Sequence record: MT446409.1
Length of the DNA: 53,453 bases
DNA from: Escherichia virus TH37
Strand: one strand, 5' to 3'
Each line of letters starts with the position of its first letter. Positions within the stretch are counted from its first letter, which is position 1. The position numbers and the translations under genes are program-made. Of the stretch, positions 1-53,453 are shown piece by piece. Under the pieces are notes generated by a model, which was not told the origin of the DNA, searched no databases, and worked only from the letters and a program-made list of their open reading frames with translations.

Positions 1-543
1 AGATATTGAGTACCAGAATATTGAGCATCTAAGCAAAAGCCTAAACGAGTATCGCATTCACCCGTTGTCTCAACCTTTAACCAATCCAAAGCCAGACGAA
101 CATAAGTGAATGGCGTAGAAGGACGTTCAGCTTTAGGCATGTTCATCATGCGAGCAAGTGAACCAGCTGGATTCTGAGCAACATAAGTTAAACGCTTAGC
201 AGAAGTCCAGTCTCCACCGGAAATATCTTCCAGCTCTGCCATAAACATGTTGTATGCAATGGTAGTAGAACCATCTTCGTTAAACTTCTTAACGATGTTC
301 TCAACATTGTGAGAATACAAGCAACGAGCAAAGTCAGATGATTGTGGGTTAGGACCAGCACATGCTACATGGTACAGACGACCACGGTTATCAGCAAAGT
401 AGTCAGAGAACAGAGTGTCCTGACCAACCATTGCTACAGCATTGTTCCAAACATGGAGTTCAGTCTGGATTGCTTCTGGCATCTGCAAGCCACCATAAGT
501 ACGTTGTTCAATCATAGACTGGATGATGCGAACCATCTCAGTC
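1..543. repeat. Direct repeat of window end 52911-53453 (wrap-around of circular or terminally redundant genome)
   Basis: Positions 115-543 identical to 53025-53453; positions 1-114 differ at about 11 sites from 52911-53024. Confidence 0.9.
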
Positions 544-1217
544 TCCACATGGTACTCAGTATCTTGCAGGAATTCGATTGCAGCTTTCAGAGTCTTGGAT
601 GGCTTAACTTTGCCACCTTTAACGAAAGGCTTGCGACGAGATTCAGTTGTTACACGCTCAGTGAATGGAACTGAGGTATCTTTGGTTGTAACCAGTTCAA
701 CCCATGCGTCAGTCATCTGGAACGATTTGTCCTCGTTCATGGTGATGAAGCCAAAGTGCTTAGCTAAACCAATGAGGTTGATAGCTGGGTCAACATAGTG
801 CATTGACTTTAAGTCGTTGTTGTAACGGTTGGCATCAGCAATAGAAGAAGAAGCCAGCTCAACCATTGCAATGGCTGGGACAACATCATCACGAGTGAAT
901 GAGGTCATCATCTTGAAGATTGCGAGAGCAGCAATAGCACAGGTCTGAGGCTGCATATAGTTCTGTTTCTCTTTGGCACGGTATACCAGAGCCGTGATAG
1001 CAGGGACAACGGATTTGATAGTTTGAGTTGAGATAGTTGTCATTTTGCGAGTCTCCAAGTTAGTTTCGGTTTTAGTTTCGGATTGTGTAGCAGCAGTGAT
1101 TTCGTTAACCATTTGGTTGCAACGGTCCATCGTATCAAGCACGTCTTTCCAACCGTGGCCTTCTTCTTTTAAGCGAGCGCCATCAGCAGCCAGTGCACGA
1201 TATTCTTCATTAGTCAT
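1..1217 (-). CDS. T7-like single-subunit RNA polymerase, N-terminal part (gene runs off the window start; continues at 52013-53453 if the genome is circular)
   Basis: Minus-strand frame open from 1289 to 1; contains ...FADNRGRLYHVACAGPNPQ matching T7 RNAP FPYNMDWRGRVYAV; ATG at 1217 has GGAGA 5 nt upstream (alternative ATG at 1044); motif A-like LDAQYSGTQYL at window edge. Confidence 0.8.
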   Translation of the reverse strand, partial: MTNEEYRALAADGARLKEEGHGWKDVLDTMDRCNQMVNEITAATQSETKTETNLETRKMTTISTQTIKSVVPAITALVYRAKEKQNYMQPQTCAIAALAIFKMMTSFTRDDVVPAIAMVELASSSIADANRYNNDLKSMHYVDPAINLIGLAKHFGFITMNEDKSFQMTDAWVELVTTKDTSVPFTERVTTESRRKPFVKGGKVKPSKTLKAAIEFLQDTEYHVETEMVRIIQSMIEQRTYGGLQMPEAIQTELHVWNNAVAMVGQDTLFSDYFADNRGRLYHVACAGPNPQSSDFARCLYSHNVENIVKKFNEDGSTTIAYNMFMAELEDISGGDWTSAKRLTYVAQNPAGSLARMMNMPKAERPSTPFTYVRLALDWLKVETTGECDTRLGFCLDAQYSGTQY

Positions 1218-1824: not shown

Positions 1825-2943
1825 TCATAATTCAAATCCACCCAGAGCATTGGTATCAACTTCGGAGTCAATTTGCCCAACCAGGTAGGAACTAATCTCC
1901 GTTTCCTGTGGAGCAACTTGTACAGCATCCGAATTCAACCATGCGTTAATCCATGGAATAGGATTCGTAGCACCTTTGAATGGGGCATCCAATCCAACTG
2001 CTTGCATACGAATATTCGTGATATATTCGACATATCCGCACAGAATTTGCTTGTTTAAGCCAATCATGGAGCCATCTTTGAACAGATAATCGGCCCAATC
2101 TTTCTCTTGTTGGGCAGCATCTTCGAACAATTTCTGGCATTCTTCGCGGCATTCTTGGGCAATTTCACCCATTTCTGGGTCATCTTTGCCACTCACCAGG
2201 ATATTCAACATGTGCTGAGTTCCAGTCAAATGGAGTGCTTCATCTCGTGCAATCAGTCGAATAATCTTGGCATTTCCTTCCATTAACTTGCGTTCAGCGA
2301 AGGCAAATGAGCAAGCAAAGCTAACATAGAAGCGAATTGCTTCAAGTGCGTTGATAGACATGAGGCATAAATAGAGCTTCTTCTTCAACTCACGAAGACT
2401 GATTTCATGACCAGCATGGTTCCCTTCTCCGAACAACTGCCATAATGCGGTTAGTTCTTGAAGCTCGTCATAATATTGGGAGATGCCAATTGCTCGTGCT
2501 TTGATATGCTCGTTAGTTACGATTTCATCAAAGATAATGCTTGGGTCTGTAACAATATTACGAATGATGTGGGTGTAAGAACGTGAATGGATAGTCTCGG
2601 AGAAAGACCAAGTTTCAATCCAAGTTTCAAGCTCAGGAATGCTCACAATTGGAAGCAAAACTGTGTTCGGTCCACGTCCTTGAATTGAGTCCAGAAGGAT
2701 TTGATATCGCAAATTACTGGTGAAAATGTGCTGTTCGTTTGCTGGAAGCTTCTGGTAATCAATACGGTCTTGTGAAACATCTACCTCTTCCGGTCTCCAG
2801 AAGAACGACAATTGTTTCTCAATCAACTTCTCAAATATGCCATACTTCTGCTGGTCATAGCGAGCAACGTTGACGTTCTGACCAAAGAACATTGGTTCTA
2901 ATAATTGGTTATTCTTGGTTTGTGAAAAGGTAGTGTAAGACAT
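1825..2943 (-). CDS. nrdB: Ribonucleotide reductase class Ia beta subunit (NrdB)
   Basis: 372 aa collinear with and near-identical to E. coli NrdB as recalled ([14 protein letters not shown]..., ...[21 protein letters not shown]). Confidence 0.95.
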
Positions 2944-2945
2944 TA

Positions 2946-3506
2946 TTATTTATTTCCTAAATACTTATAAAATTTATGTCCGCCATAAGTTCCTCTTCCA
3001 ACAACTCTTTTGAAATTACATTTCTCTGTAGCTGTGCAGAAGTGGGTGGCATCGGTTACATCCGGAGCATCCAACAATGCGAAGTTAATTGCTACATTCA
3101 TGGTGTCCCAAACCTGTTTTGATTCAGTCTTCCAATTTGTTTTAACTATGTTCTTCCATTGAGCATTCTTCTTCTTTGCTTCTCTTGTCCAAGCAAACTG
3201 GTTGCGTTGATAAACTACATCGCAAACGGTGTTAGCGAATGGCTTCCCGAATTTGATTCGATTACGGACGACATTAGCTACCAGAATCTTTCCATGTTTG
3301 CTTTCTCCACGAGCTTCAAACCAAATTACTTTGGCATAGCATTCTATATCTTTGCGTTGAGAAATAGATAGTTTCGGATTTCCATTTAAATAAGATTGAC
3401 TTGCAAATTCTGTAATAGTGGCGTTCACTGCCCCAGCCGAAGCTGGGACATTTGCGTGAAACAGACTCACCAACAGAAATGCAAGAACTTGTGCTGAGGG
3501 CATCAT
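2946..3506 (-). CDS. Endolysin, SleB/Hydrolase_2-type cell wall hydrolase with N-terminal signal or SAR sequence
   Basis: N-terminal hydrophobic leader [26 protein letters not shown]; WFEARGE and [13 protein letters not shown] motifs; adjacent to holin-like gene. Confidence 0.6.
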
Positions 3507-8975: not shown

Positions 8976-10130
8976 TTATGGTGTTTCAGTGAAAATTACA
9001 GATGCAGTTGTGGCTTCTGCCTTCTTATCAATGTCCAGTTCGATTGTAGCAATTCCAGTAGGACTTGCAGAAGTACCAATGAACAATGAGTCAACCTGAA
9101 CACCGTTGGTAGCATCCATGATAGGTTTGAAACATTCTGACCAGATAACAGAATCACCTGGGTTCAGGGAGTTGATGTAATCCATCATAGCCGTTTGCAA
9201 CTGGCGTGCAGCATCGTTGGAACTAATGTTAGAACCAGGGCGACGCTTGAATGTACCAGTTGCATAAATGGTTGCACCTTCTGGACGGCTGAACTTAACT
9301 TCGTGCGGATAACCTTTACTATCATAGATAGACACAGATGTAGTCCCGTGAGTAGGAACGCCACCTGTTTTGGATGAATAGATTCGACGAGCAATTTCGT
9401 CTTCTGTTCCACCTTCTACGACAACAAAGACTGTACCCGAAGGCTGAGTCCCAATAGGAGCGCCGGTATCATTATCACGAATACGAAGGTAAGATAGATT
9501 AAGGTCAGCGAGTGCAGCGTAAATAGCTTCAACAAAGGCCGAACCGCTGTGCGCAGTAGTCCTGTCACGGCGAGTACGAAGTGCTGGGTCAGACTCATAA
9601 TCCACACCTGTTTGACCAATCTCTGGGTTGTTAACTGATTCCCAACCTGCGACTGGTGTATTGATTTTATTAACAGTGTCGGCAGCAATATAATATTCAC
9701 CAGTTTCTGTGGCTACTGCCGTAACAGTTCCTGGAATAATGCAGTCATATTGCGTCTTGAAATCCATTGTTCCATCACTGACAATAGAGCCAGCAGGAAC
9801 AAGAGTGCCAGCCTGACCAGCACAACGGACACCAACACGAGAAGGCCAGTTAACCAATCGTTTAGTGAAGGTCAGTTCACAGATGTTGTCCAAACCAATC
9901 TTCTGCATTGCACCAGGACGATAGGCATTGAATACCATTTCAGCCTGTTGCCAGCACTTAGAGATTTCTTCCGAAATGATTCCAATAACCTGACCATCTG
10001 GGCCTTCTGGACTAATGTCAAAGTTGGCACCAAACACGCTAAGGAATCTGCTATTAATGTGCGACACGATTTCTTGAACAGGCTTCTGTACGAACCCGTT
10101 TTCAGTCACGCCGTACTGGATTGTTGCCAT
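8976..10130 (-). CDS. Baseplate J-like protein (P2 gpJ / Mu gp47-like)
   Basis: 384 aa, position in Mu/P2-type baseplate gene order. Confidence 0.5.
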   Translation of the reverse strand: MATIQYGVTENGFVQKPVQEIVSHINSRFLSVFGANFDISPEGPDGQVIGIISEEISKCWQQAEMVFNAYRPGAMQKIGLDNICELTFTKRLVNWPSRVGVRCAGQAGTLVPAGSIVSDGTMDFKTQYDCIIPGTVTAVATETGEYYIAADTVNKINTPVAGWESVNNPEIGQTGVDYESDPALRTRRDRTTAHSGSAFVEAIYAALADLNLSYLRIRDNDTGAPIGTQPSGTVFVVVEGGTEDEIARRIYSSKTGGVPTHGTTSVSIYDSKGYPHEVKFSRPEGATIYATGTFKRRPGSNISSNDAARQLQTAMMDYINSLNPGDSVIWSECFKPIMDATNGVQVDSLFIGTSASPTGIATIELDIDKKAEATTASVIFTETP

Positions 10131-10477
10131 GTTAAGTAATCCTCAAGATTCCCGTAATCGGAGATAGCAATGAAAGAAATTCTCACTTCACGCTCACGGA
10201 AATCAGCATCAATGTTTATAGAGATAAGTTGTTGAACACCAGGAGTGCTTCGAATGATGTTGGCGATAGCCGCCTCAATGTCGGCAGTTCGAACAGTTTT
10301 AGTGAAGATTCCTTCAAACCAAGGAAGACCAGTGGTCGGGTCATGTTTCCATTCTCCGAACACCGTCAGTAATCTGCACTTAACTATTTGAGCAACTTCT
10401 TCTACACCACCAACCCTGGTTGCACCACGACCAATAATAATATCGTGGTTAGAATCTAATAGTAAGTTTCCAGCCAT
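10106..10477 (-). CDS. Baseplate wedge subunit (gpW / gp25-like)
   Basis: 123 aa between spike and J-like genes. Confidence 0.45.
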   Translation of the reverse strand: MAGNLLLDSNHDIIIGRGATRVGGVEEVAQIVKCRLLTVFGEWKHDPTTGLPWFEGIFTKTVRTADIEAAIANIIRSTPGVQQLISINIDADFREREVRISFIAISDYGNLEDYLTWQQSSTA

Positions 10478-33686: not shown

Positions 33687-35620
33687 TAGTGAATCTCCGC
33701 GTAGTTATCACCGAACTGCACATCACATGCACAATCACGGTTAAGTTTGAGTTCTTTGTTGGTACGTTCCATTGCCTCATTAAGCAAGTCCGTCCACAAG
33801 TCACGGAAACCTTTCTTAACTTGGAGAATCAATTCATCGTGGAATTGTCCAGACAGAAGCGGGTCGCAGCCCCAACGTTCGTTACAAATTGCAATGATGT
33901 TGTTACACCAGATATCAAACACATATGCACCAGTACCCTGACACAATGTGGAGAATCGGTCTTTCTCTGTACGCAACGAATACCAGAATTTGTTTACTGG
34001 ATTCTGTTGCCACATCTGACCATCAATTGTTACAACTTTGGTGTTTGCAGCAATCTCTTTAATAGACCAGTTCAGGTCCCAATATGCTTTATGCAGACGT
34101 GCAGCAGTAGCCTGGTCACAGTCAGCAGAACGAGCAACAGTTGGAATACCAGCACCATACTGACAAGCATAGTTAGTGGTCTTAAACATTGGACGTTGTT
34201 TACACTTCTTAATTCCGTCCTTGTGGTCCTGAGATTCCTGTTCGGTGATAAATCCACCAATTACGCCGATTGCAAGGTGAGCATCATAGTCTGGTGCCAA
34301 CTGCTTCTTAACGTATTCAGGGTCATACATCCATTGGAAGTGGTGCTTACAGCGGTCTTCCAGTGAACACAAGTCAGAGCCTAACTGCTCGTAGTCTTCG
34401 CGCCACGCTTCCAACATTGAACGAAGCTCTTCACCGCCAAATACGCGAATAGAAGGGAGGTTAACAAGTTCGCGGTGTTTAAGACGTAAAGTATTGGTAA
34501 GACCACCGCATCTTGCAGTAAGGAATCCATCTTCATCGACGTCGCGAAGGAAACCATTAACAACAGACAGACGGTGTTTATACACGCCCATCCCAATAAG
34601 ATGTTGAATACCAGAGTCGGGGTTTCTTTCTGCCAGCTTATGCAAGCTCGGACAAATTTCGGGATTGCCATCTTCATCCTTGACCGTGATTTGAGGAATC
34701 TGGCGAGTCTCGCCTGTCTCTTTGTTACGGTCAAACTTAAATGTTTCTGGAACCCAGCCAAGGCTGAATAACCAATCTTTGATTTGTACGTGAGAACCAG
34801 CGTTAGGTTCTTTGTAACCCTTGAGCACCTTAATGTGCAAGTCTGGGTCTTTCCAGTCCAAACCGTTTGCATCACAGACAGCCTTCCACTTAATACCAGT
34901 TGCAGACAATTGTCCATTTAACTTGTGGCATTTGGCAGGACGCGACTTGATGACATATTCGGGAACACGAGGCATTGATGCTTCCAACGCATCCGTCTTC
35001 TCTTTAATCATTGGTTCCAGCTTCGCTTTAAATGCGTAAGCCTTCTCCATGTTCAGCTTCCAGCGAGTGCGTTGTTGAATAACTTGTTGACGTGCTTTGG
35101 TCATAAGGTATTCAATAAAGCGCTTAACTTCGCCAGGAGTTTTATAAATCTTGAGGAGTTGAATATATTGCTGTTCCCACAGCTTTAGCTGAATCTTACA
35201 GTCTTCCATCACACGATGGTTATATTCTTCCTGAGTTTGATTTTCCCAATCATCAATGACTGGTTTCGGCACACCAAACTCTTCTCCATAACCTTCTAAG
35301 CCGTGCTTAACACGACGAGGTTGCAGATACCAACTGATAAACAAAGTATCAATTAGTGTACATTTTGAAACGTCATAACCCAAGAACTTCAATGCTTCAA
35401 AGTCAAAGGTTGCGCCGTTGTGCATAATTAATGTTGGACCTGAGTCCAGGAATGCTTGAATGGATTTACGGTCAGTCCACTCTGTTACAACTTCTTCACG
35501 GGTTTGAACATCAATGTGTCCAATGTTGTGAAGACGTGGGGCAGCTTGTTTCCTCATCTGCTCCAACAAACCAGTTGTTTCAATGTCACTGGCATACATG
35601 TTATTCCAAGGATACAGCAC
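33686..35620 (-). CDS. Family A DNA polymerase (T7-like) with 3'-5' exonuclease domain
   Basis: 644 aa; Exo I motif SDIETTGL; motif B RPMFKTTNYACQYGAG; motif C LSGQFHDELIL. Confidence 0.85.
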   Translation of the reverse strand: MLYPWNNMYASDIETTGLLEQMRKQAAPRLHNIGHIDVQTREEVVTEWTDRKSIQAFLDSGPTLIMHNGATFDFEALKFLGYDVSKCTLIDTLFISWYLQPRRVKHGLEGYGEEFGVPKPVIDDWENQTQEEYNHRVMEDCKIQLKLWEQQYIQLLKIYKTPGEVKRFIEYLMTKARQQVIQQRTRWKLNMEKAYAFKAKLEPMIKEKTDALEASMPRVPEYVIKSRPAKCHKLNGQLSATGIKWKAVCDANGLDWKDPDLHIKVLKGYKEPNAGSHVQIKDWLFSLGWVPETFKFDRNKETGETRQIPQITVKDEDGNPEICPSLHKLAERNPDSGIQHLIGMGVYKHRLSVVNGFLRDVDEDGFLTARCGGLTNTLRLKHRELVNLPSIRVFGGEELRSMLEAWREDYEQLGSDLCSLEDRCKHHFQWMYDPEYVKKQLAPDYDAHLAIGVIGGFITEQESQDHKDGIKKCKQRPMFKTTNYACQYGAGIPTVARSADCDQATAARLHKAYWDLNWSIKEIAANTKVVTIDGQMWQQNPVNKFWYSLRTEKDRFSTLCQGTGAYVFDIWCNNIIAICNERWGCDPLLSGQFHDELILQVKKGFRDLWTDLLNEAMERTNKELKLNRDCACDVQFGDNYAEIH

Positions 35621-35686
35621 AGTATGGCTCCAATGGATTTGGTGAGGTCTACGCTGGTGGGCGAACCATGCAGCGTAGAAGCTCTG

Positions 35687-37450
35687 TTATTGATGTGGAC
35701 CGTTCTTCTTAGTAAGTTGAACAATCTCTTTGGTTTCGAACAAGGAGTCGTCCCAAGAACGTTGAATGATTCGACCAGAGTCTGAGTCATAATACGTCTT
35801 GAAGCCTTCTGTCTTACCACTCTTACGAGCTTTGATAGAACGAATGATTGAGCAGTTTGGGTCTACTGCCTGGCTATTACGCTCAAAGCCAAACATGCCA
35901 TGAGAATACTTAGCAGCAGCACGAGAGCCAGTAAAGTCTGACTTCTTGATTCGTCCACCATCTTCATGAGGTCGCTGACCTTTTGCCACAGGGTTAAGGT
36001 GCGACAAAATATTAACATGGAACTGATATTGGTCTGCCAGCTTAGTAATGTCTGCATACAGCTTGCCTAAGAAGTCGTTCTTCTCTGAGGCAGAAATCCC
36101 TTCCGATAAGTAGGTTAAGTTATCAAGAACAAACATATCAATGTCTGGACCAATCTGACGAAGAATCGTCTTTAACCCATCCCAAGTTTCATAAGGGTCT
36201 TCTCCAGCTTGCTTTCGGTCCCAAATCTCCATGTTACGAAGCATCTTCGCAGCAGTCTGACGGAACTTCGCTTCATCGTATCGAGGGTCTTCACGAGTAA
36301 ACGCAGGTTCCCAATACGGCAAGTTGTCGTTGAGGCCAGCCATACGGCGTAATGTTTCCGCAGGAGTTTCCTCCATGTATGCAGTAAACACTCCCCAATC
36401 ATGCTGAATGATGTTGTGATGCACAATCTGACGGGACAGGGTAGTTTTACCACCACCTTCTGCACCACCGATTGTAATAACTTCGGCTCGACGTTGACCA
36501 AACATTAAGTCGGTTAACTTGGGCCAAGGATAATCCACACCTTGTTCAACCTCATCATCAAGCTCTTCCATAAGAAGTTCTTTGTTGACAAGTGCTGTAG
36601 GTAGAGGACGGGCAGCACGGAATACAACAGCAGACTGAGTAGCTTTCAGTAAGCCACGTTTCAAACAGTCGTTGGCATCGTTGGCAGGAAGTGTGGCAAT
36701 CATTGCACCAGGCAGTAAACGACACGCTTCCTTTGCAGCTTTACGACCAGGTTCATCATCATCAAATACGATAACAACCTGCTCCCAACGTTGCTTGATT
36801 TCTTCTGCAACTGGTGACAAACATTTGTGTACGGAATCACTTCCATCACTCAAACTAATTACAGCAAAATCCAAATCTTCATATGCACCACCACGGTTCA
36901 TAGTTTTGAGGATTTGACGCAATGCGATACAGTCTTCTTCACCCTCTGTGATGAACAGAGTCTTACCGCCAATTGCTTTTGCAGCCAACCAATTGTAGGG
37001 TTCGTTGCCTTGTGTGTCACCAACCGACCACATAACTTTCTTGTTCAGAAGTTTAATCTTCCAGCGAACAAGTTTGCCATTCTTGGTATATCCATGGGCC
37101 AAGGCATTTGGAGTCTTGCCATCAAACTCTGAATAGAGTAGGCGAACACCAGCAGCTTTCCAGAACTCCGGTTCAATACTGCGATGGTCTAAATCAAATG
37201 GAGGGCACGAGGTTATTTCGTCAATTTCTTCCTGAATTTCTTCTGGAGTCTTGACTTTAATTTCCGGAATATTCTCCGGATTATTGCCGTACGGATTCGG
37301 AACGAGAACGCCACATGCAAAGCAGTAACCAGAGAAGTTCTTATTACCAGCTTCATCGACATTCAACCAAACCTGTAAAGACTTGCCAGATGTGGATTTA
37401 CAGTCTGGTACATCGTGCTTAATCTTGGCAACACATTGCTTGACGTTCAT
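35687..37450 (-). CDS. Primase-helicase (T7 gp4-like)
   Basis: 587 aa; N-terminal Cys4 zinc ribbon, TOPRIM-like middle, Walker A GGAEGGGKTT. Confidence 0.8.
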   Translation of the reverse strand: MNVKQCVAKIKHDVPDCKSTSGKSLQVWLNVDEAGNKNFSGYCFACGVLVPNPYGNNPENIPEIKVKTPEEIQEEIDEITSCPPFDLDHRSIEPEFWKAAGVRLLYSEFDGKTPNALAHGYTKNGKLVRWKIKLLNKKVMWSVGDTQGNEPYNWLAAKAIGGKTLFITEGEEDCIALRQILKTMNRGGAYEDLDFAVISLSDGSDSVHKCLSPVAEEIKQRWEQVVIVFDDDEPGRKAAKEACRLLPGAMIATLPANDANDCLKRGLLKATQSAVVFRAARPLPTALVNKELLMEELDDEVEQGVDYPWPKLTDLMFGQRRAEVITIGGAEGGGKTTLSRQIVHHNIIQHDWGVFTAYMEETPAETLRRMAGLNDNLPYWEPAFTREDPRYDEAKFRQTAAKMLRNMEIWDRKQAGEDPYETWDGLKTILRQIGPDIDMFVLDNLTYLSEGISASEKNDFLGKLYADITKLADQYQFHVNILSHLNPVAKGQRPHEDGGRIKKSDFTGSRAAAKYSHGMFGFERNSQAVDPNCSIIRSIKARKSGKTEGFKTYYDSDSGRIIQRSWDDSLFETKEIVQLTKKNGPHQ

Positions 37451-38384: not shown

Positions 38385-39170
38385 GTTTCTCTCCAGTTAA
38401 ATTTAAGTAAGTGCCCTGACGTGGACTATTACGAACATTACAATAAATTGGCTTAAATGGTGTTTCCACTGCGGCCAAGACACTTATTAAATTTGATTCG
38501 AACCGCCCAAGTGAATCAACCTTGTTTATGGGGACCATCGGGGAAAAGTATAAACCCGCTTAATGCTCGCATCATGTTTGAACATTAAGAACCCTGACTT
38601 GCATATTTCATGTGAATAGGAACATAGTCTGGATTTTGAATCCAGCTAACTTCGAGAAGAGGAGTAGCTCAAACGAAAGCCTGAACTTTCTTTCGACACA
38701 TCACAATCAGCGCAACTGAGCCGTATCGCTACGGTATGCCAGACGCTAACTTGAGCCTTTTGAACAGAGGCATAACTGTTGGAGGAATTCTGTGGCCTTT
38801 ACGCGGCCAACGTGCCATTAATGCTGGCAAGACAGGGCTACCGTTCCCAAGCTCCCTTATCGCGGTAAATACGGACACTGTTTTAGGAAGTGACCACCTG
38901 AACGTCTCGTGTTCATTACGTTGACTTTACGGAGTCATCGGAGCTTCGTTCTCAAGCACACCGTTTTCTTCTTTGGCCGGTGTCAAGCCGCAAGCCTTTG
39001 TTTCGGTGGACTAACCTTCTCACACTAACGATGTGTAGCGGGACGTTCCAATCCTAGGAGGCAGCAATTTCAATTGTTATGCCCAGAGCAATTGCAGGAA
39101 TTACACCTGCCATGCTACAAGTAGCTAGAGTCTCGTTATTTAAAGTCGCGCACTCCCTCGACTTGTTCAC

Positions 39171-39380
39171 TCACTGTCGGGTAAGTTTCGAACACTTTTG
39201 TGCCCACGTTTCATTGTGGACTAAAATCTGGGTTTTGGTTTCGCGTGACAAAACTTTCACTTCTGCAACATCCAAATAGATCGGTTGTGCAATCAAGCAA
39301 TAATCACTTACGAACCCACTTTGAGAGCAACTCACTATCGACATTGCTATCAGAACTGCTAGACACTTCTTTCTGAACAT
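39171..39380 (-). CDS. Putative o-spanin (Rz1-like outer membrane lipoprotein), overlapping i-spanin in another frame
   Basis: Internal start MFRKKCLAVLIAMSIVSC with lipobox-like IVSC; starts inside and extends past the Rz-like ORF; weak SD. Confidence 0.3.
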   Translation of the reverse strand: MFRKKCLAVLIAMSIVSCSQSGFVSDYCLIAQPIYLDVAEVKVLSRETKTQILVHNETWAQKCSKLTRQ

Positions 39381-39540
39381 GCGATTTAATCTCGATAGAT
39401 TCTTTAATGGAATCGAATTGCTTCTCTTTGGCTTCCTGACGCTCCTCGGCTTTGCCTGAGCTTTTGCCTTTGAGGAACACTGCAATAATAATACCCAATG
39501 CAGTAAGGACGCCAAGAATAATTGACTTAAGCTGTTGCAT
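39304..39540 (-). CDS. Putative i-spanin (Rz-like): N-terminal TM plus charged periplasmic segment
   Basis: 78 aa; TM SIILGVLTALGIIIAVFL; SD AAGGTG upstream. Confidence 0.4.
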   Translation of the reverse strand: MQQLKSIILGVLTALGIIIAVFLKGKSSGKAEERQEAKEKQFDSIKESIEIKSHVQKEVSSSSDSNVDSELLSKWVRK

Positions 39541-39548
39541 GAATCACC

Positions 39549-39689
39549 TTAGATGGCGCACGCACCACTTGAACAGTCGTTATCACCAGCACCAGGAACG
39601 ATTGCTTCTTCGTCCTGCTTCTTCTTCAGTTCTTCAATTGCTTCTTCGGCAGCACCGAAGTCTAAGTTATCAAGTGCATCAAAATCCAT
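39549..39689 (-). CDS. Mini-ORF whose C-terminus matches the class Ia RNR alpha (NrdA) C-terminal redox tail
   Basis: 46 aa MDFDALDNLDFGAAEEAIEELKKKQDEEAIVPGAGDNDCSSGACAI; last 17 residues ~10/17 identical to E. coli NrdA ...LVPSIQDDGCESGACKI as recalled; GGAG SD upstream. Confidence 0.35.
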   Translation of the reverse strand: MDFDALDNLDFGAAEEAIEELKKKQDEEAIVPGAGDNDCSSGACAI

Positions 39690-39719
39690 AAGGACTCCAG
39701 TGTTGCGGGTTATTAAAGC

Positions 39720-39815
39720 TGGTGGACAAGGTTGGATTCGAACCAACGACACATCTGTCGAACAGATTGCTCTACCTGACTAAGCTCTGGAGCAGACCTT
39801 CTGAGCTACTCGTCC
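39720..39815 (-). tRNA. tRNA-like element (anticodon-like loop UCG), atypical: ~21-nt extra segment between acceptor stem and D-arm
   Basis: Minus-sense GGACGAG-TA-...-GCTTAGTCAGGTAGAGC-...GTTGG-TTCGAAT-CCAAC-CTTGTCC-A-CCA: 7-bp acceptor stem, canonical T-arm, encoded CCA, but 96 nt long. Confidence 0.4.
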
Positions 39816-40652
39816 GAATAAGGTGGGTTTTGGTAACGCAGGTTTTCCCGAACTGCGAGGCTTGTAGCAAGACAGCCGCATTACTTTGCGAATGCCAGCA
39901 GGATTGATGGTCCGACCGTCTTTGCTTAGGCAACCTGATTTAATCTACCTTTGTAGATACCATCGGTTAGAGCAGTTTATTTCCATGCCCAGGGCAACTC
40001 ACTTTAGGGTGAATTAGGTTACGCAGTGTAGCTTCGAAGTCGCTGCCACAGGCTTGAGATTCCTGTGTGGAGGGAAATCCAGAGGAGCACTTCCTCAAGG
40101 AGTTACGTTTCACATTGGCATAGCTTCTCACACTAAACCAATTGAAGACATTCCAGTGTGCTCGTCCGTCCTCCGGAAATATCCAACTGCATAATTAAGT
40201 TTGTACTCTGTCACATCCTACACGCGCGCTCTTAGGACTTAAACTGGCTTGCATCGCAGAATACAAATTAATTATTGCTCCGATTTATTAATCACATCTC
40301 GAAGCCACAATGCGCCAAATTTGGTTACATGGGATTGGAAGACCACGGAGAGGACTTAAATTTAATTAAGCCGCAACTCGCATTTCAGAATCATTTGCAT
40401 TTATTTTAAATGAATAAAACAGTCGCAATAACTTCAGGCAGTTTAGGCCCGTCGTAAGACTCAGAAAACTACTTCAATTTGTACACAACAAATTTCCCAA
40501 CATTGACCTCCGTCGAAGTCTCATGCGATGGTGTTTGGGTTATGCACAAATTGAAGCCCACTCACTCGGAATGGGATTCAAGGCAGCACCGGAAATCTTC
40601 CAGTGCGTGCCAGATCGATTTAGCTTAGCTTCTCAAGTTTGCTCTTGGCAAC

Positions 40653-41068: not shown

Positions 41069-41084
41069 TCACATCCAATTAATG
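41069..41084 (-). promoter_or_regulatory. Conserved phage promoter-like motif, copy 2
   Basis: Plus TCACATCCAATTAATG. Confidence 0.5.
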
Positions 41085-52012: not shown

Positions 52013-53453
52013 TTATTGACAGAAGTAGTAAGCGTGTTCGCTCATCAGAAGCTCTTCAGTAACAATGTTCTCATGGTACATGTTGATGCCACCAAGTTGC
52101 TTAGACAGAGATTCAAACTGATTATTGTGAACAAAGATTTCAACATAAGCAGAACGAATTACTTCCATCATTTTAGGAGCATCAGCTAAGCAGCAACGGA
52201 AACAATCGTGAATTGAAGTAAAGCCACGAAGACCAGCTTCTTTAGCTTTGACTGCAACAGTACGAGCAACCAATGCGTCAATACCTTGAATGTAGTTAAC
52301 AACGAAGGTACGCTTGAATTCTTCTTTAGTTGGGTTGGACTCACGAATGGTCCAAGGCTTATTCTCCTGAATCTGACCAAAGATAACACGAGTTTGAGAG
52401 TCAACACGAATGCTGAATGCCTCACAGATTTCACGAGATGGGAAGCAAGGCTTCATTACAACCTGACCATCAGTGTGACGATATGTGATGTACTCTTTAC
52501 CAAGTTCAACACAACGATTGTATGCAGCATCAGCAGCTTTCTCGATGAACATGTTAATCTTAGCACCCAATGCGTTATGGATTGCTTCTACACAAAGTTC
52601 AGCAAATGCTTCTGCTTTCTCAACAGGAATCTGGAGAGATGCTGTCATGTATGCAATGAAGTCAGAAGAACCAGTTAATGCAGCTTTACCACCACCATAT
52701 TGGATAGCCATGTATGGAGTTTTGATAAACTTACGACCAGCTTTCGGATTCAAGAATTCATCCATGATTTCAGCAGATGGTTTCATTGAAGAACGGTCAA
52801 GCAACTTCAACAGTTCACGAAGAGATAACTGGTATGGGTCAGATGCTTTAGTTGATGAATCAACCAGACCTGTTGCACGAGCCATCTCCATGTTACCAGC
52901 AATGAATGCCAGATATTGAGTACCAGAACATTTAGCATCTAAGCCAAAGCCTACACGAGAATCGCATTCACCTGTAGTCTCAAACTTGAACCAATCCAGA
53001 GCCAGACGAACATAAGTGAATGGCTTAGAAGGACGTTCAGCTTTAGGCATGTTCATCATGCGAGCAAGTGAACCAGCTGGATTCTGAGCAACATAAGTTA
53101 AACGCTTAGCAGAAGTCCAGTCTCCACCGGAAATATCTTCCAGCTCTGCCATAAACATGTTGTATGCAATGGTAGTAGAACCATCTTCGTTAAACTTCTT
53201 AACGATGTTCTCAACATTGTGAGAATACAAGCAACGAGCAAAGTCAGATGATTGTGGGTTAGGACCAGCACATGCTACATGGTACAGACGACCACGGTTA
53301 TCAGCAAAGTAGTCAGAGAACAGAGTGTCCTGACCAACCATTGCTACAGCATTGTTCCAAACATGGAGTTCAGTCTGGATTGCTTCTGGCATCTGCAAGC
53401 CACCATAAGTACGTTGTTCAATCATAGACTGGATGATGCGAACCATCTCAGTC
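52013..53453 (-). CDS. T7-like single-subunit RNA polymerase, C-terminal part (N-terminus beyond the window end; matches 1-1217 across the repeat)
   Basis: DNRGRLYHV, motif A-like GLDAKCSGTQYLAF, motif B-like KTPYMAIQYGGGK, motif C IHDCFRCC collinear with T7 RNAP DWRGRVYAV / DGSCSGIQHF / MTLAYGS / IHDSFGT. Confidence 0.85.
   Translation of the reverse strand, partial: TEMVRIIQSMIEQRTYGGLQMPEAIQTELHVWNNAVAMVGQDTLFSDYFADNRGRLYHVACAGPNPQSSDFARCLYSHNVENIVKKFNEDGSTTIAYNMFMAELEDISGGDWTSAKRLTYVAQNPAGSLARMMNMPKAERPSKPFTYVRLALDWFKFETTGECDSRVGFGLDAKCSGTQYLAFIAGNMEMARATGLVDSSTKASDPYQLSLRELLKLLDRSSMKPSAEIMDEFLNPKAGRKFIKTPYMAIQYGGGKAALTGSSDFIAYMTASLQIPVEKAEAFAELCVEAIHNALGAKINMFIEKAADAAYNRCVELGKEYITYRHTDGQVVMKPCFPSREICEAFSIRVDSQTRVIFGQIQENKPWTIRESNPTKEEFKRTFVVNYIQGIDALVARTVAVKAKEAGLRGFTSIHDCFRCCLADAPKMMEVIRSAYVEIFVHNNQFESLSKQLGGINMYHENIVTEELLMSEHAYYFCQ

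Follow-up and report, generated by a model that had tools for sequence, protein, structure and literature searches.

A small gene in the genome of Escherichia virus TH37, a phiEcoM-GJ1-like myophage (Chaseviridae, Carltongylesvirus), encodes a 46-residue acidic protein whose C-terminus copies the two-cysteine tail through which the large subunit of bacterial class Ia ribonucleotide reductase (RNR), NrdA, receives electrons. The protein belongs to an uncharacterised family found in unrelated phages, and none of the four complete carrier genomes that we checked has nrdA. It most likely acts, therefore, on the host's enzyme, although everything about its activity is inferred from sequence alone. 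The stretch of DNA analysed here, called the window, is 53,453 nucleotides long and is essentially a whole genome.

The gene and its NrdA-like end

The ORF lies at 39549..39689 on the minus strand, with the ATG at 39689-39687 and the stop codon TAA at 39551-39549, and its 46 codons specify MDFDALDNLDFGAAEEAIEELKKKQDEEAIVPGAGDNDCSSGACAI. A Shine-Dalgarno sequence, GGAG, is present at 39698-39695 (39695..39698, minus strand), 5 nt before the ATG. An earlier note, made from the sequence alone, had described a 46-codon ORF with a GGAG ribosome-binding site, ending in a tail about 10/17 identical to the extreme C-terminus of E. coli NrdA with both shuttle cysteines, and lying about 36 kb from an orphan nrdB. 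That observation is confirmed, with one correction. When E. coli K-12 nrdA was translated from NC_000913.3 (C-terminus ...DLVPSIQDDGCESGACKI; in longer form, ...TLYYQNTRDGAEDAQDDLVPSIQDDGCESGACKI), the identity over the last 17 residues was 9/17, not 10/17. Both cysteines (equivalents of C754/C759) are in register, and both sequences end at the stop codon.

The match is the best tblastn hit of NrdA anywhere in the window, and is anchored at both ends. A permutation test, which the note had set as a condition for doubting the similarity, came out in its favour: the end-anchored BLOSUM62 score of the tail is 51, whereas the next best of 927 ORF ends in the window scores 12, and the maximum over 209,828 ORF ends from 200 shuffled genomes is 36. 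The gene for the beta subunit, nrdB, is at 1825..2943 on the minus strand (PF00268, E = 4.8e-50), 36.6 kb away in window coordinates. Since the window ends overlap, repeating part of the T7-like RNA polymerase gene, the genome is permuted and the shorter path between the two genes is about 15 kb. No nrdA is present in the window.

The note offered two readings, an nrdA remnant or a tail mimic competing for thioredoxin or glutaredoxin, and these are supported only in part: the remnant is rejected, the mimicry is supported at the sequence level, and the competition remains a conjecture. The ORF is not the NrdA protein itself, as it has no Pfam hit (PF02867/PF00317, the RNR catalytic barrel with the active-site cysteines and the Y730/Y731 pathway), and a tblastn search of the window with NrdA finds only the 17-residue tail. 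Neither does it behave as a remnant. It has its own start codon and Shine-Dalgarno sequence directly after a tRNA gene, and nothing NrdA-like flanks it. The peptide is 93.5-100% identical in 45 phage records. In an alignment of 8 relatives, 13 of the 18 variable positions of the ORF are third codon positions and only two changes alter an amino acid (F3I and A34E), indicating purifying selection. TGGAGTCCT, containing the Shine-Dalgarno sequence, is conserved in all 8, while the spacer upstream of it varies. The ORF is annotated as a hypothetical protein in phage Bp10 (QEM42538.1) and is unannotated in phiEcoM-GJ1 itself.

The protein appears to have two parts. Residues 1-28 (39606..39689, minus strand) form an acidic N-terminal module carrying the family motif D-F-D...L-D-F-x-A-x-E, followed by a helix. 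Residues 29-46 (39552..39605, minus strand) form the NrdA-like tail AIVPGAGDNDCSSGACAI, with Cys39 encoded at 39573-39575 and Cys44 at 39558-39560. AlphaFold2, run with the family alignment, predicts helices at residues 4-7 and 11-28 followed by coil, at moderate confidence (mean pLDDT 65).

A family of small acidic proteins

Searches with the single sequence were nearly blind. A phmmer search of PDB with the 46-mer does not find NrdA, and a word-indexed protein search finds only near-identical relatives. The family appeared only when an exhaustive phmmer scan of 1.84 billion representatives found a 57-aa homologue, here called P0005 (...NNFDDVLGGLDLEASEKKVEEMRDGGGEAIVAGKGDNDCTSGACAI), at E = 1.4e-4 and 57% identity over residues 4-46. 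A tblastn search with P0005 in turn hits the Carltongylesvirus genes at E = 1e-5, and it revealed small ORFs in many jumbo phages of Erwinia, Dickeya, Klebsiella and Serratia, together with an unannotated ORF in the N4-like coliphage G7C. Examples are those of AD1 (...VEAMRDGGGEVVDDKDADGCESGACKI), Miami (MSDMFDVDQLNNLNLEAVEEKVESLRDGGGEVVEASDECEGGACKI), PCH45 (...DDFDIDALANVDFDAVDKRVEEMQAGGGEVLEPSNKCESGACEI) and G7C (MEFDDLDFEAIE...NAKGNNDCTSGGCTI).

A profile search of 5.8 billion proteins returned 81 proteins of 41-97 aa, of which eighty have no Pfam domain and the remaining one is an NrdA C-terminal fragment with PF02867. In all, the family has more than 80 sequence clusters, in jumbo, N4-like, Carltongylesvirus and lambdoid phages of Enterobacterales, plus chromosomal copies in marine gammaproteobacteria. 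The members include a Klebsiella lambdoid prophage gene between the Q antiterminator and the holin, and genes in bacterial chromosomal contexts, namely one lineage next to a MYG1-family gene, and Thalassolituus MAGs. A separate scan of bacterial genomes was swamped by genuine NrdA C-termini and confirmed at least two Thalassolituus loci.

The architecture, seen in three family alignments, is that of a strongly acidic protein with a conserved N-terminal motif and helix, a flexible linker and an end of the form C-x(2-4)-C-x-[IL]-stop. All 54 aligned members have exactly two cysteines, and the second is always third from the C-terminus. The spacing is CX4C in 50 members, CX3C in 3 and CX2C in 1, which is the behaviour expected of a redox dithiol rather than of a rigid structural motif. 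The net charge ranges from -8 to -13. The window protein conforms, with 46 aa, 13 D+E against 3 K+R (net charge -10), the sequence MDFDALDNLDFGAAEE and the ending CSSGACAI.

The family has escaped description. Pfam, NCBIfam and Rfam gave nothing for the ORF. Several members match phage ortholog groups (phrog_10239, 24014, 38753, 14561), so that clustering pipelines have already seen the sequences, but these groups carry no function or description and the window's own protein matches none of them convincingly (best E = 0.061). Full-text literature searches for the motif strings, for phage proteins that bind NrdA and for orphan nrdB found nothing relevant.

The tail is that of the RNR alpha subunit

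Several members end in CESGACKI exactly as E. coli NrdA does, and the last ten residues of the AD1 protein, DGCESGACKI, are identical to those of E. coli NrdA. The NrdA C-terminal fragment picked up by the profile (...TLYYHNTRDGSGEDLAEDDGCESGACKI; aligned part ...YYHNTRDGSGEDLAEDDGCESGACKI) aligns without gaps to the family's MRDGGGEVVEASDECEGGACKI at 14/22. The resemblance therefore starts right after the conserved YY of the radical pathway and covers the whole disordered tail. As an unbiased test, a profile of the 54 sequences was searched against all 177,635 distinct PDB sequences. Its top 13 hits are class Ia RNR alpha C-termini, all end-anchored, including E. coli NrdA and 1qfn_B, the R1 25-mer solved bound to glutaredoxin-1; the tails of a class II RNR and of another class I alpha also appear. 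A smaller profile gave the same picture. The E-values for NrdA in this search are marginal (0.03-0.05), as the shared segment is only about 12-27 residues, and the family profile aligns only to NrdA 735-761. By hhalign, the family matches NrdA 750-761 at E = 7.6e-5. The case thus rests on end-anchoring, on the identical octapeptides and decapeptide, on the RNR alpha tails being the top-scoring PDB hits and on family-wide conservation.

The N-terminal module has no counterpart in NrdA. We considered that it might mimic the C-terminal tail of NrdB, which binds alpha, or the tip of SSB, since MDFDALDNLDF (motif D-x-D-x-L-x-N-hydrophobic) resembles DTDDLSNFQL of NrdB and MDFDDDIPF of SSB. Family-wide best ungapped scores against the NrdB tail are no better than those of shuffled tails (z = 1.3-1.5; about 8-11% of shuffles reach the observed score), and the SSB tip scores no better. 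By hhalign, the alignment to NrdB has E = 0.59 and is not at the tail. The idea is therefore rejected.

What the carrier genomes encode

Four complete carrier genomes were searched with E. coli NrdA, NrdB, TrxA and GrxA. In the window, nrdA is absent, nrdB is present as an orphan and no E. coli-like trx or grx is found. The same holds for the Serratia jumbo phage PCH45 (212,807 bp). In the Dickeya jumbo phage AD1 (261,658 bp), nrdA and nrdB are both absent, as are E. coli-like trx and grx. In G7C (72,917 bp), nrdA and E. coli-like trx and grx are absent, and nrdB is absent apart from a stop-containing antisense fragment.

The NrdB of the window (79.8% identical to E. coli NrdB) and that of PCH45 are each about 80% identical to the E. 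coli protein but only 73.7% identical to each other, and both keep every iron ligand, Y122, W48, Y356 and a host-like alpha-binding tail. Because each is closer to E. coli NrdB than to the other, independent capture of host-type beta subunits is the likeliest origin, with both expected to pair with host NrdA. The published description of the related phage ST32 and of phiEcoM-GJ1 likewise lists a beta subunit gene and no alpha subunit gene (PMC6266442). It should be stressed that co-occurrence with nrdB is not a general rule: it holds for this genus and PCH45 but not for AD1 or G7C, and other phages with host-like NrdB (the Ea35-70 group, OBP, pEt-SU) were not among the listed hits to the family. 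Nor is the absence of nrdA in 4 of 4 carriers a statistically meaningful anticorrelation, since most phages lack nrdA anyway and about 9% of phage records carry NrdB. It does mean that the tail protein cannot be serving a phage NrdA in these genomes.

The genomic context often involves nucleotide metabolism. ThyX lies 1.4 kb downstream in the window, and dCMP deaminase or thymidylate synthase is found near the gene in AD1, JA13 and Y3. AD1 encodes dCMP deaminase, thymidylate synthase, dTMP kinase and dUTPase, and the small gene lies between the deaminase and the synthase genes. No conserved neighbouring partner emerged, however, as the upstream and downstream genes differ between lineages and have no Pfam domains.

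Possible role in the host RNR relay

In E. coli, the CX4C tail of NrdA is reduced by thioredoxin or glutaredoxin and then swings into the active site to reduce the C225-C462 disulfide formed at each turnover, and this re-reduction limits steady-state turnover. In yeast, the tail of one protomer can reportedly act on the other, and Sml1 is reported to inhibit by competing with it (Zhang et al., 2007, cited in PMC4078304). The simplest reading of a conserved, separately encoded tail with an invariant cysteine pair and a putative docking helix is that it enters this relay. The carriers lack nrdA and so would depend on host NrdA, which fits that reading, and the target must be host-encoded.

We prefer the view that the protein is a shuttle acting in trans: host Trx1/Grx1 would reduce it, and it would deliver electrons to host NrdA. 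In this phage it would work alongside the phage's own NrdB, so that both the radical generator and an extra electron-delivery tail are supplied to the host catalytic subunit. What the analysis establishes is that the gene is real, that its tail is homologous to or mimics that of NrdA, that the protein belongs to a family, and that the phage has an intact orphan nrdB but no nrdA; redox activity, interaction with NrdA, Trx or Grx, the functional partnership with NrdB and the stimulatory direction are inferences. The only indirect support for reduction of the dithiol by thioredoxin or glutaredoxin is that the family profile matches 1qfn_B, the R1 peptide solved in complex with glutaredoxin-1. A role somewhere in the RNR/redoxin relay is about as likely as not, perhaps slightly more, whereas stimulation in particular is a tentative choice that no result here constrains. 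There are also difficulties. NrdA's own tail is tethered to the enzyme, so that a free tail would add flux only if the N-terminal helix docked it tightly. Pairing with nrdB holds in only 2 of the 4 genomes, the gene sits next to lysis genes in this phage and in the Klebsiella prophage, and some members lie in bacterial chromosomes. A role outside RNR is therefore not excluded.

It is possible, though we hold this only tentatively, that phages lacking nrdA take over the host's class Ia RNR by supplying detachable modules, one being a free alpha-tail shuttle that docks on host NrdA through its N-terminal helix and either speeds the rate-limiting re-reduction or uncouples it from host control, accompanied in at least two unrelated lineages by a phage-made beta2 radical subunit. 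The flexible tail of an enzyme would then be working as an independent, mobile protein, a previously unknown kind of RNR accessory factor that also occurs in some bacteria. This would matter because RNR is the only de novo source of dNTPs, and re-reduction of its large subunit is hard to study as the disordered tail is invisible in structures; a natural, separately encoded tail would be a ready-made probe of that step. It would also explain how phages with an orphan nrdB, or with no RNR genes at all, manipulate host dNTP supply.

Alternative explanations

The main rival, which we consider unlikely, is that the protein inhibits the relay, the free tail competing with NrdA's own tail for the active site or docking surface, or for reduced Trx/Grx, and so slowing re-reduction. 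This is close to the competitor proposed in the earlier note. The tail evidence serves this reading equally, and there is a precedent in small disordered proteins that reportedly regulate RNR by interfering with tail-mediated regeneration, such as yeast Sml1, which is reported to compete with the Rnr1 C-terminal CX2C domain (Zhang et al., 2007, PNAS, ref. 16 of PMC4078304). However, all four carriers checked lack nrdA and two also lack nrdB, so that they appear to depend on host NrdA for de novo dNTPs, and two even add a functional-looking NrdB. Inhibiting NrdA would work against that. By inference, a newly made cytoplasmic peptide would also be reduced, and could not drain Trx/Grx without an oxidant. 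A helper role is thus at least as likely as a competitor role.

Less likely still is a thiol-redoxin bait or adaptor unrelated to RNR, in which the tail is only a handle recognised by thioredoxin or glutaredoxin, and the N-terminal helix takes the redoxin to another target (a phage replication protein, a lysis component or a host defence system) or sequesters it. In favour of this, the N-terminal module is conserved but matches neither NrdA nor NrdB, members occur in phages with no RNR genes at all, and the gene lies next to spanin or lysis genes here and in a lambdoid prophage, in a cargo-gene position beside an Acb2/Tad1-like gene. On the other hand, no partner gene recurs across contexts, the context in jumbo phages is nucleotide metabolism, and no transmembrane segment or export signal is apparent, so that the protein is presumably cytoplasmic and a periplasmic lysis role is unlikely.

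An exported or modified peptide (a bacteriocin- or RiPP-like precursor) is essentially excluded: the acidic FD..LD segment plus GGG run ('DFD..LDxE...MRDGGG|E...') superficially resembles FNLD/double-glycine leaders and the two cysteines could form a disulfide, but the window's own protein lacks the GGG run, the supposed core is identical to the NrdA tail in several members, the whole protein is strongly acidic, and no modification enzyme, peptidase-containing ABC transporter or immunity gene was found nearby in about 15 contexts (the window, 9 GenBank phages, a prophage, bacterial loci and metagenomic contigs). A decaying nrdA or a chance ORF, suggested by resemblance to only the last ~20-27 residues of NrdA in a genome with nrdB but no nrdA, is contradicted by the codon-position pattern, the translation signals, the score far beyond chance and the homologous small ORFs with a shared non-NrdA module in unrelated phages and bacteria.

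Relation to other systems

The closest known element is the tail of class Ia RNR alpha itself (E. coli NrdA residues ~735-761). The motif, D-x-C-x-S-G-A-C-x-I-COOH, is at the same position relative to the C-terminus, the CX4C spacing, the acidic flanks and the preceding R-D-G-x-x-E segment match, and the segment is predicted to be flexible. What is new is its use as a separate polypeptide, attached to no RNR catalytic domain, with an unrelated N-terminal helix. The eukaryotic regulators Sml1, Spd1, Hug1 and Dif1 offer a functional analogy only: they too are small and largely disordered, and the phage protein plausibly acts on the large subunit at the step where the C-terminal dithiol regenerates the active site. 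Sml1 does not carry the redox cysteine pair, and these proteins are inhibitors encoded by the cell, whereas the carrier here is a virus that appears to need the host enzyme.

Dedicated reductants that accompany RNR genes, such as T4 NrdC thioredoxin, NrdH-redoxin and the glutaredoxin domain fused to NrdB in Facklamia ignava (PMC6187632), follow the same logic of an extra module that improves electron delivery and travels with RNR genes or is fused to them. Those are thioredoxin-fold proteins that reduce the tail, whereas the present protein copies the tail, the substrate of the redoxins. R2 C-terminal peptide mimics (HSV YAGAVVNDL; E. coli NrdB C-terminal peptides) are short copies of a subunit tail that act in trans on the partner subunit and block subunit association, but they copy the beta tail, and the element copied here is the alpha tail.

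Setting of the gene in the genome

The 1.9 kb around the gene is 90-95% identical to 48 phage records from Escherichia, Yersinia and Shigella hosts. Nearly all ORFs of at least 120 aa in the window lie on the minus strand, and in the close relative ST32 all 79 ORFs share one orientation, in the order RNA polymerase, early genes, a tRNA-Arg, replication genes, structural genes, holin, endolysin and finally the RNR beta subunit gene (PMC6266442). The tRNA-Arg(UCG)-like gene directly upstream of the small gene (39720..39815, minus strand) is on the same strand and probably in the same transcript. It was read by hand from the sequence; its Rfam tRNA match is 27.9 bits, just under the threshold of 29, and it is annotated as tRNA-Arg in phiEcoM-GJ1 and ST32. 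Downstream, an Rz-like i-spanin gene (39304..39540, minus strand; annotated as Rz-like spanin in NC_010106), whose product has an N-terminal transmembrane segment, starts 9 nt after the small gene's stop, and its Shine-Dalgarno sequence overlaps that stop codon (junction TAAGGTGATTCATG). The nearest upstream phage-promoter-like core, ATTAATTGGA (consensus from the GJ1 promoter annotations, ATTAGTTGGA), is at 41074..41083 on the minus strand; the window has 13 such matches against 4.3 expected, 12 of them on the gene strand.

Genomic surroundings of the mini-gene

Directly upstream of the mini-gene lies a tRNA-Arg(UCG)-like gene (39720-39815, minus strand). It has a good 7-bp acceptor stem, anticodon arm and T arm, but about 21 extra nucleotides are present in the D-loop, which brings the total length to ~95 nt. 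The gene is missed by ARAGORN, and Rfam scores it at 27.9 bits, just under the 29-bit threshold. The inserted segment differs between related phages (GGTCTGCTCCAGAGCTTAG vs. GGTTTGCATT-GTGCTCAG). GenBank notes that it "may contain an intron," whereas the ST32 paper says there is no intron.

The block comprising the tRNA gene, the mini-gene and the spanin genes is flanked by two stretches of about 0.9 kb (38385-39303 and 39816-40650) that have no convincing ORFs. These stretches align to relatives only in 4-6 pieces, and some relatives carry an HNH endonuclease or other genes there. Weak tmRNA-like Rfam matches were obtained at 40311-40473 on the minus strand (E = 0.05-0.14), but they are probably due to chance.

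The spanin pair consists of Rz (39304-39540, minus strand), which has an N-terminal transmembrane segment, and an overlapping Rz1 lipoprotein read in another frame (39171-39380, minus strand; signal MFRKKCLAVLIAMSIVSC). The pair is translationally juxtaposed to the mini-gene. It sits in the early/middle DNA-metabolism region, about 36 kb in window coordinates from the endolysin gene (2946-3506, PF07486). In the relatives ST32 and phiEcoM-GJ1 the holin gene sits just before the endolysin gene.

Directly after the endolysin gene comes the orphan nrdB (1825-2943, minus strand), the last gene of the genome. Its product is 79.8% identical to E. coli NrdB, with all catalytic residues intact. A host-like NrdB (65-80% identity to the E. 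coli protein) occurs in 111 phage records, and Serratia jumbo phage PCH45 likewise has nrdB but no nrdA. The two ends of the window (1-560 and 52900-53453) encode the same part of the T7-like RNA polymerase but differ at several residues (e.g., RPSTPFTYVRLALDWLKVETT vs. RPSKPFTYVRLALDWFKFETT). This suggests a circularly permuted assembly that joins two variants, rather than an exact terminal repeat.

Family members in other genomes

In phage G7C (HQ259105.1; locus L023), the mini-gene (35677-35826, plus strand) is unannotated and sits between rho-independent terminators at the end of the rightward early/middle genes. About 1.4 kb upstream, on the opposite strand, is a 51-aa NrdB-like fragment that contains a stop codon (34079-34231, minus strand; 29% identity, E = 1e-4). 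The fragment could be a relic, or the similarity could be due to chance.

Family members also lie in bacterial chromosomal contexts that are apparently not prophage (5953-6108 in L024, a locus from a Thalassolituus MAG, and 10001-10144 in a second bacterial locus, L021). One lineage sits 2 nt after a MYG1-family (PF03690) gene near RND efflux genes. Another sits between a 354-aa gene of unassigned function and genes that look like ABC-transporter components. Finally, the Klebsiella lambdoid prophage that carries a family member just after the Q antiterminator gene (locus L020) also carries an Acb2/Tad1-like (anti-CBASS/Thoeris sponge) gene just after its lysis cassette (11855-12091 in L020), and the mini-gene therefore occupies a typical late-operon cargo position.
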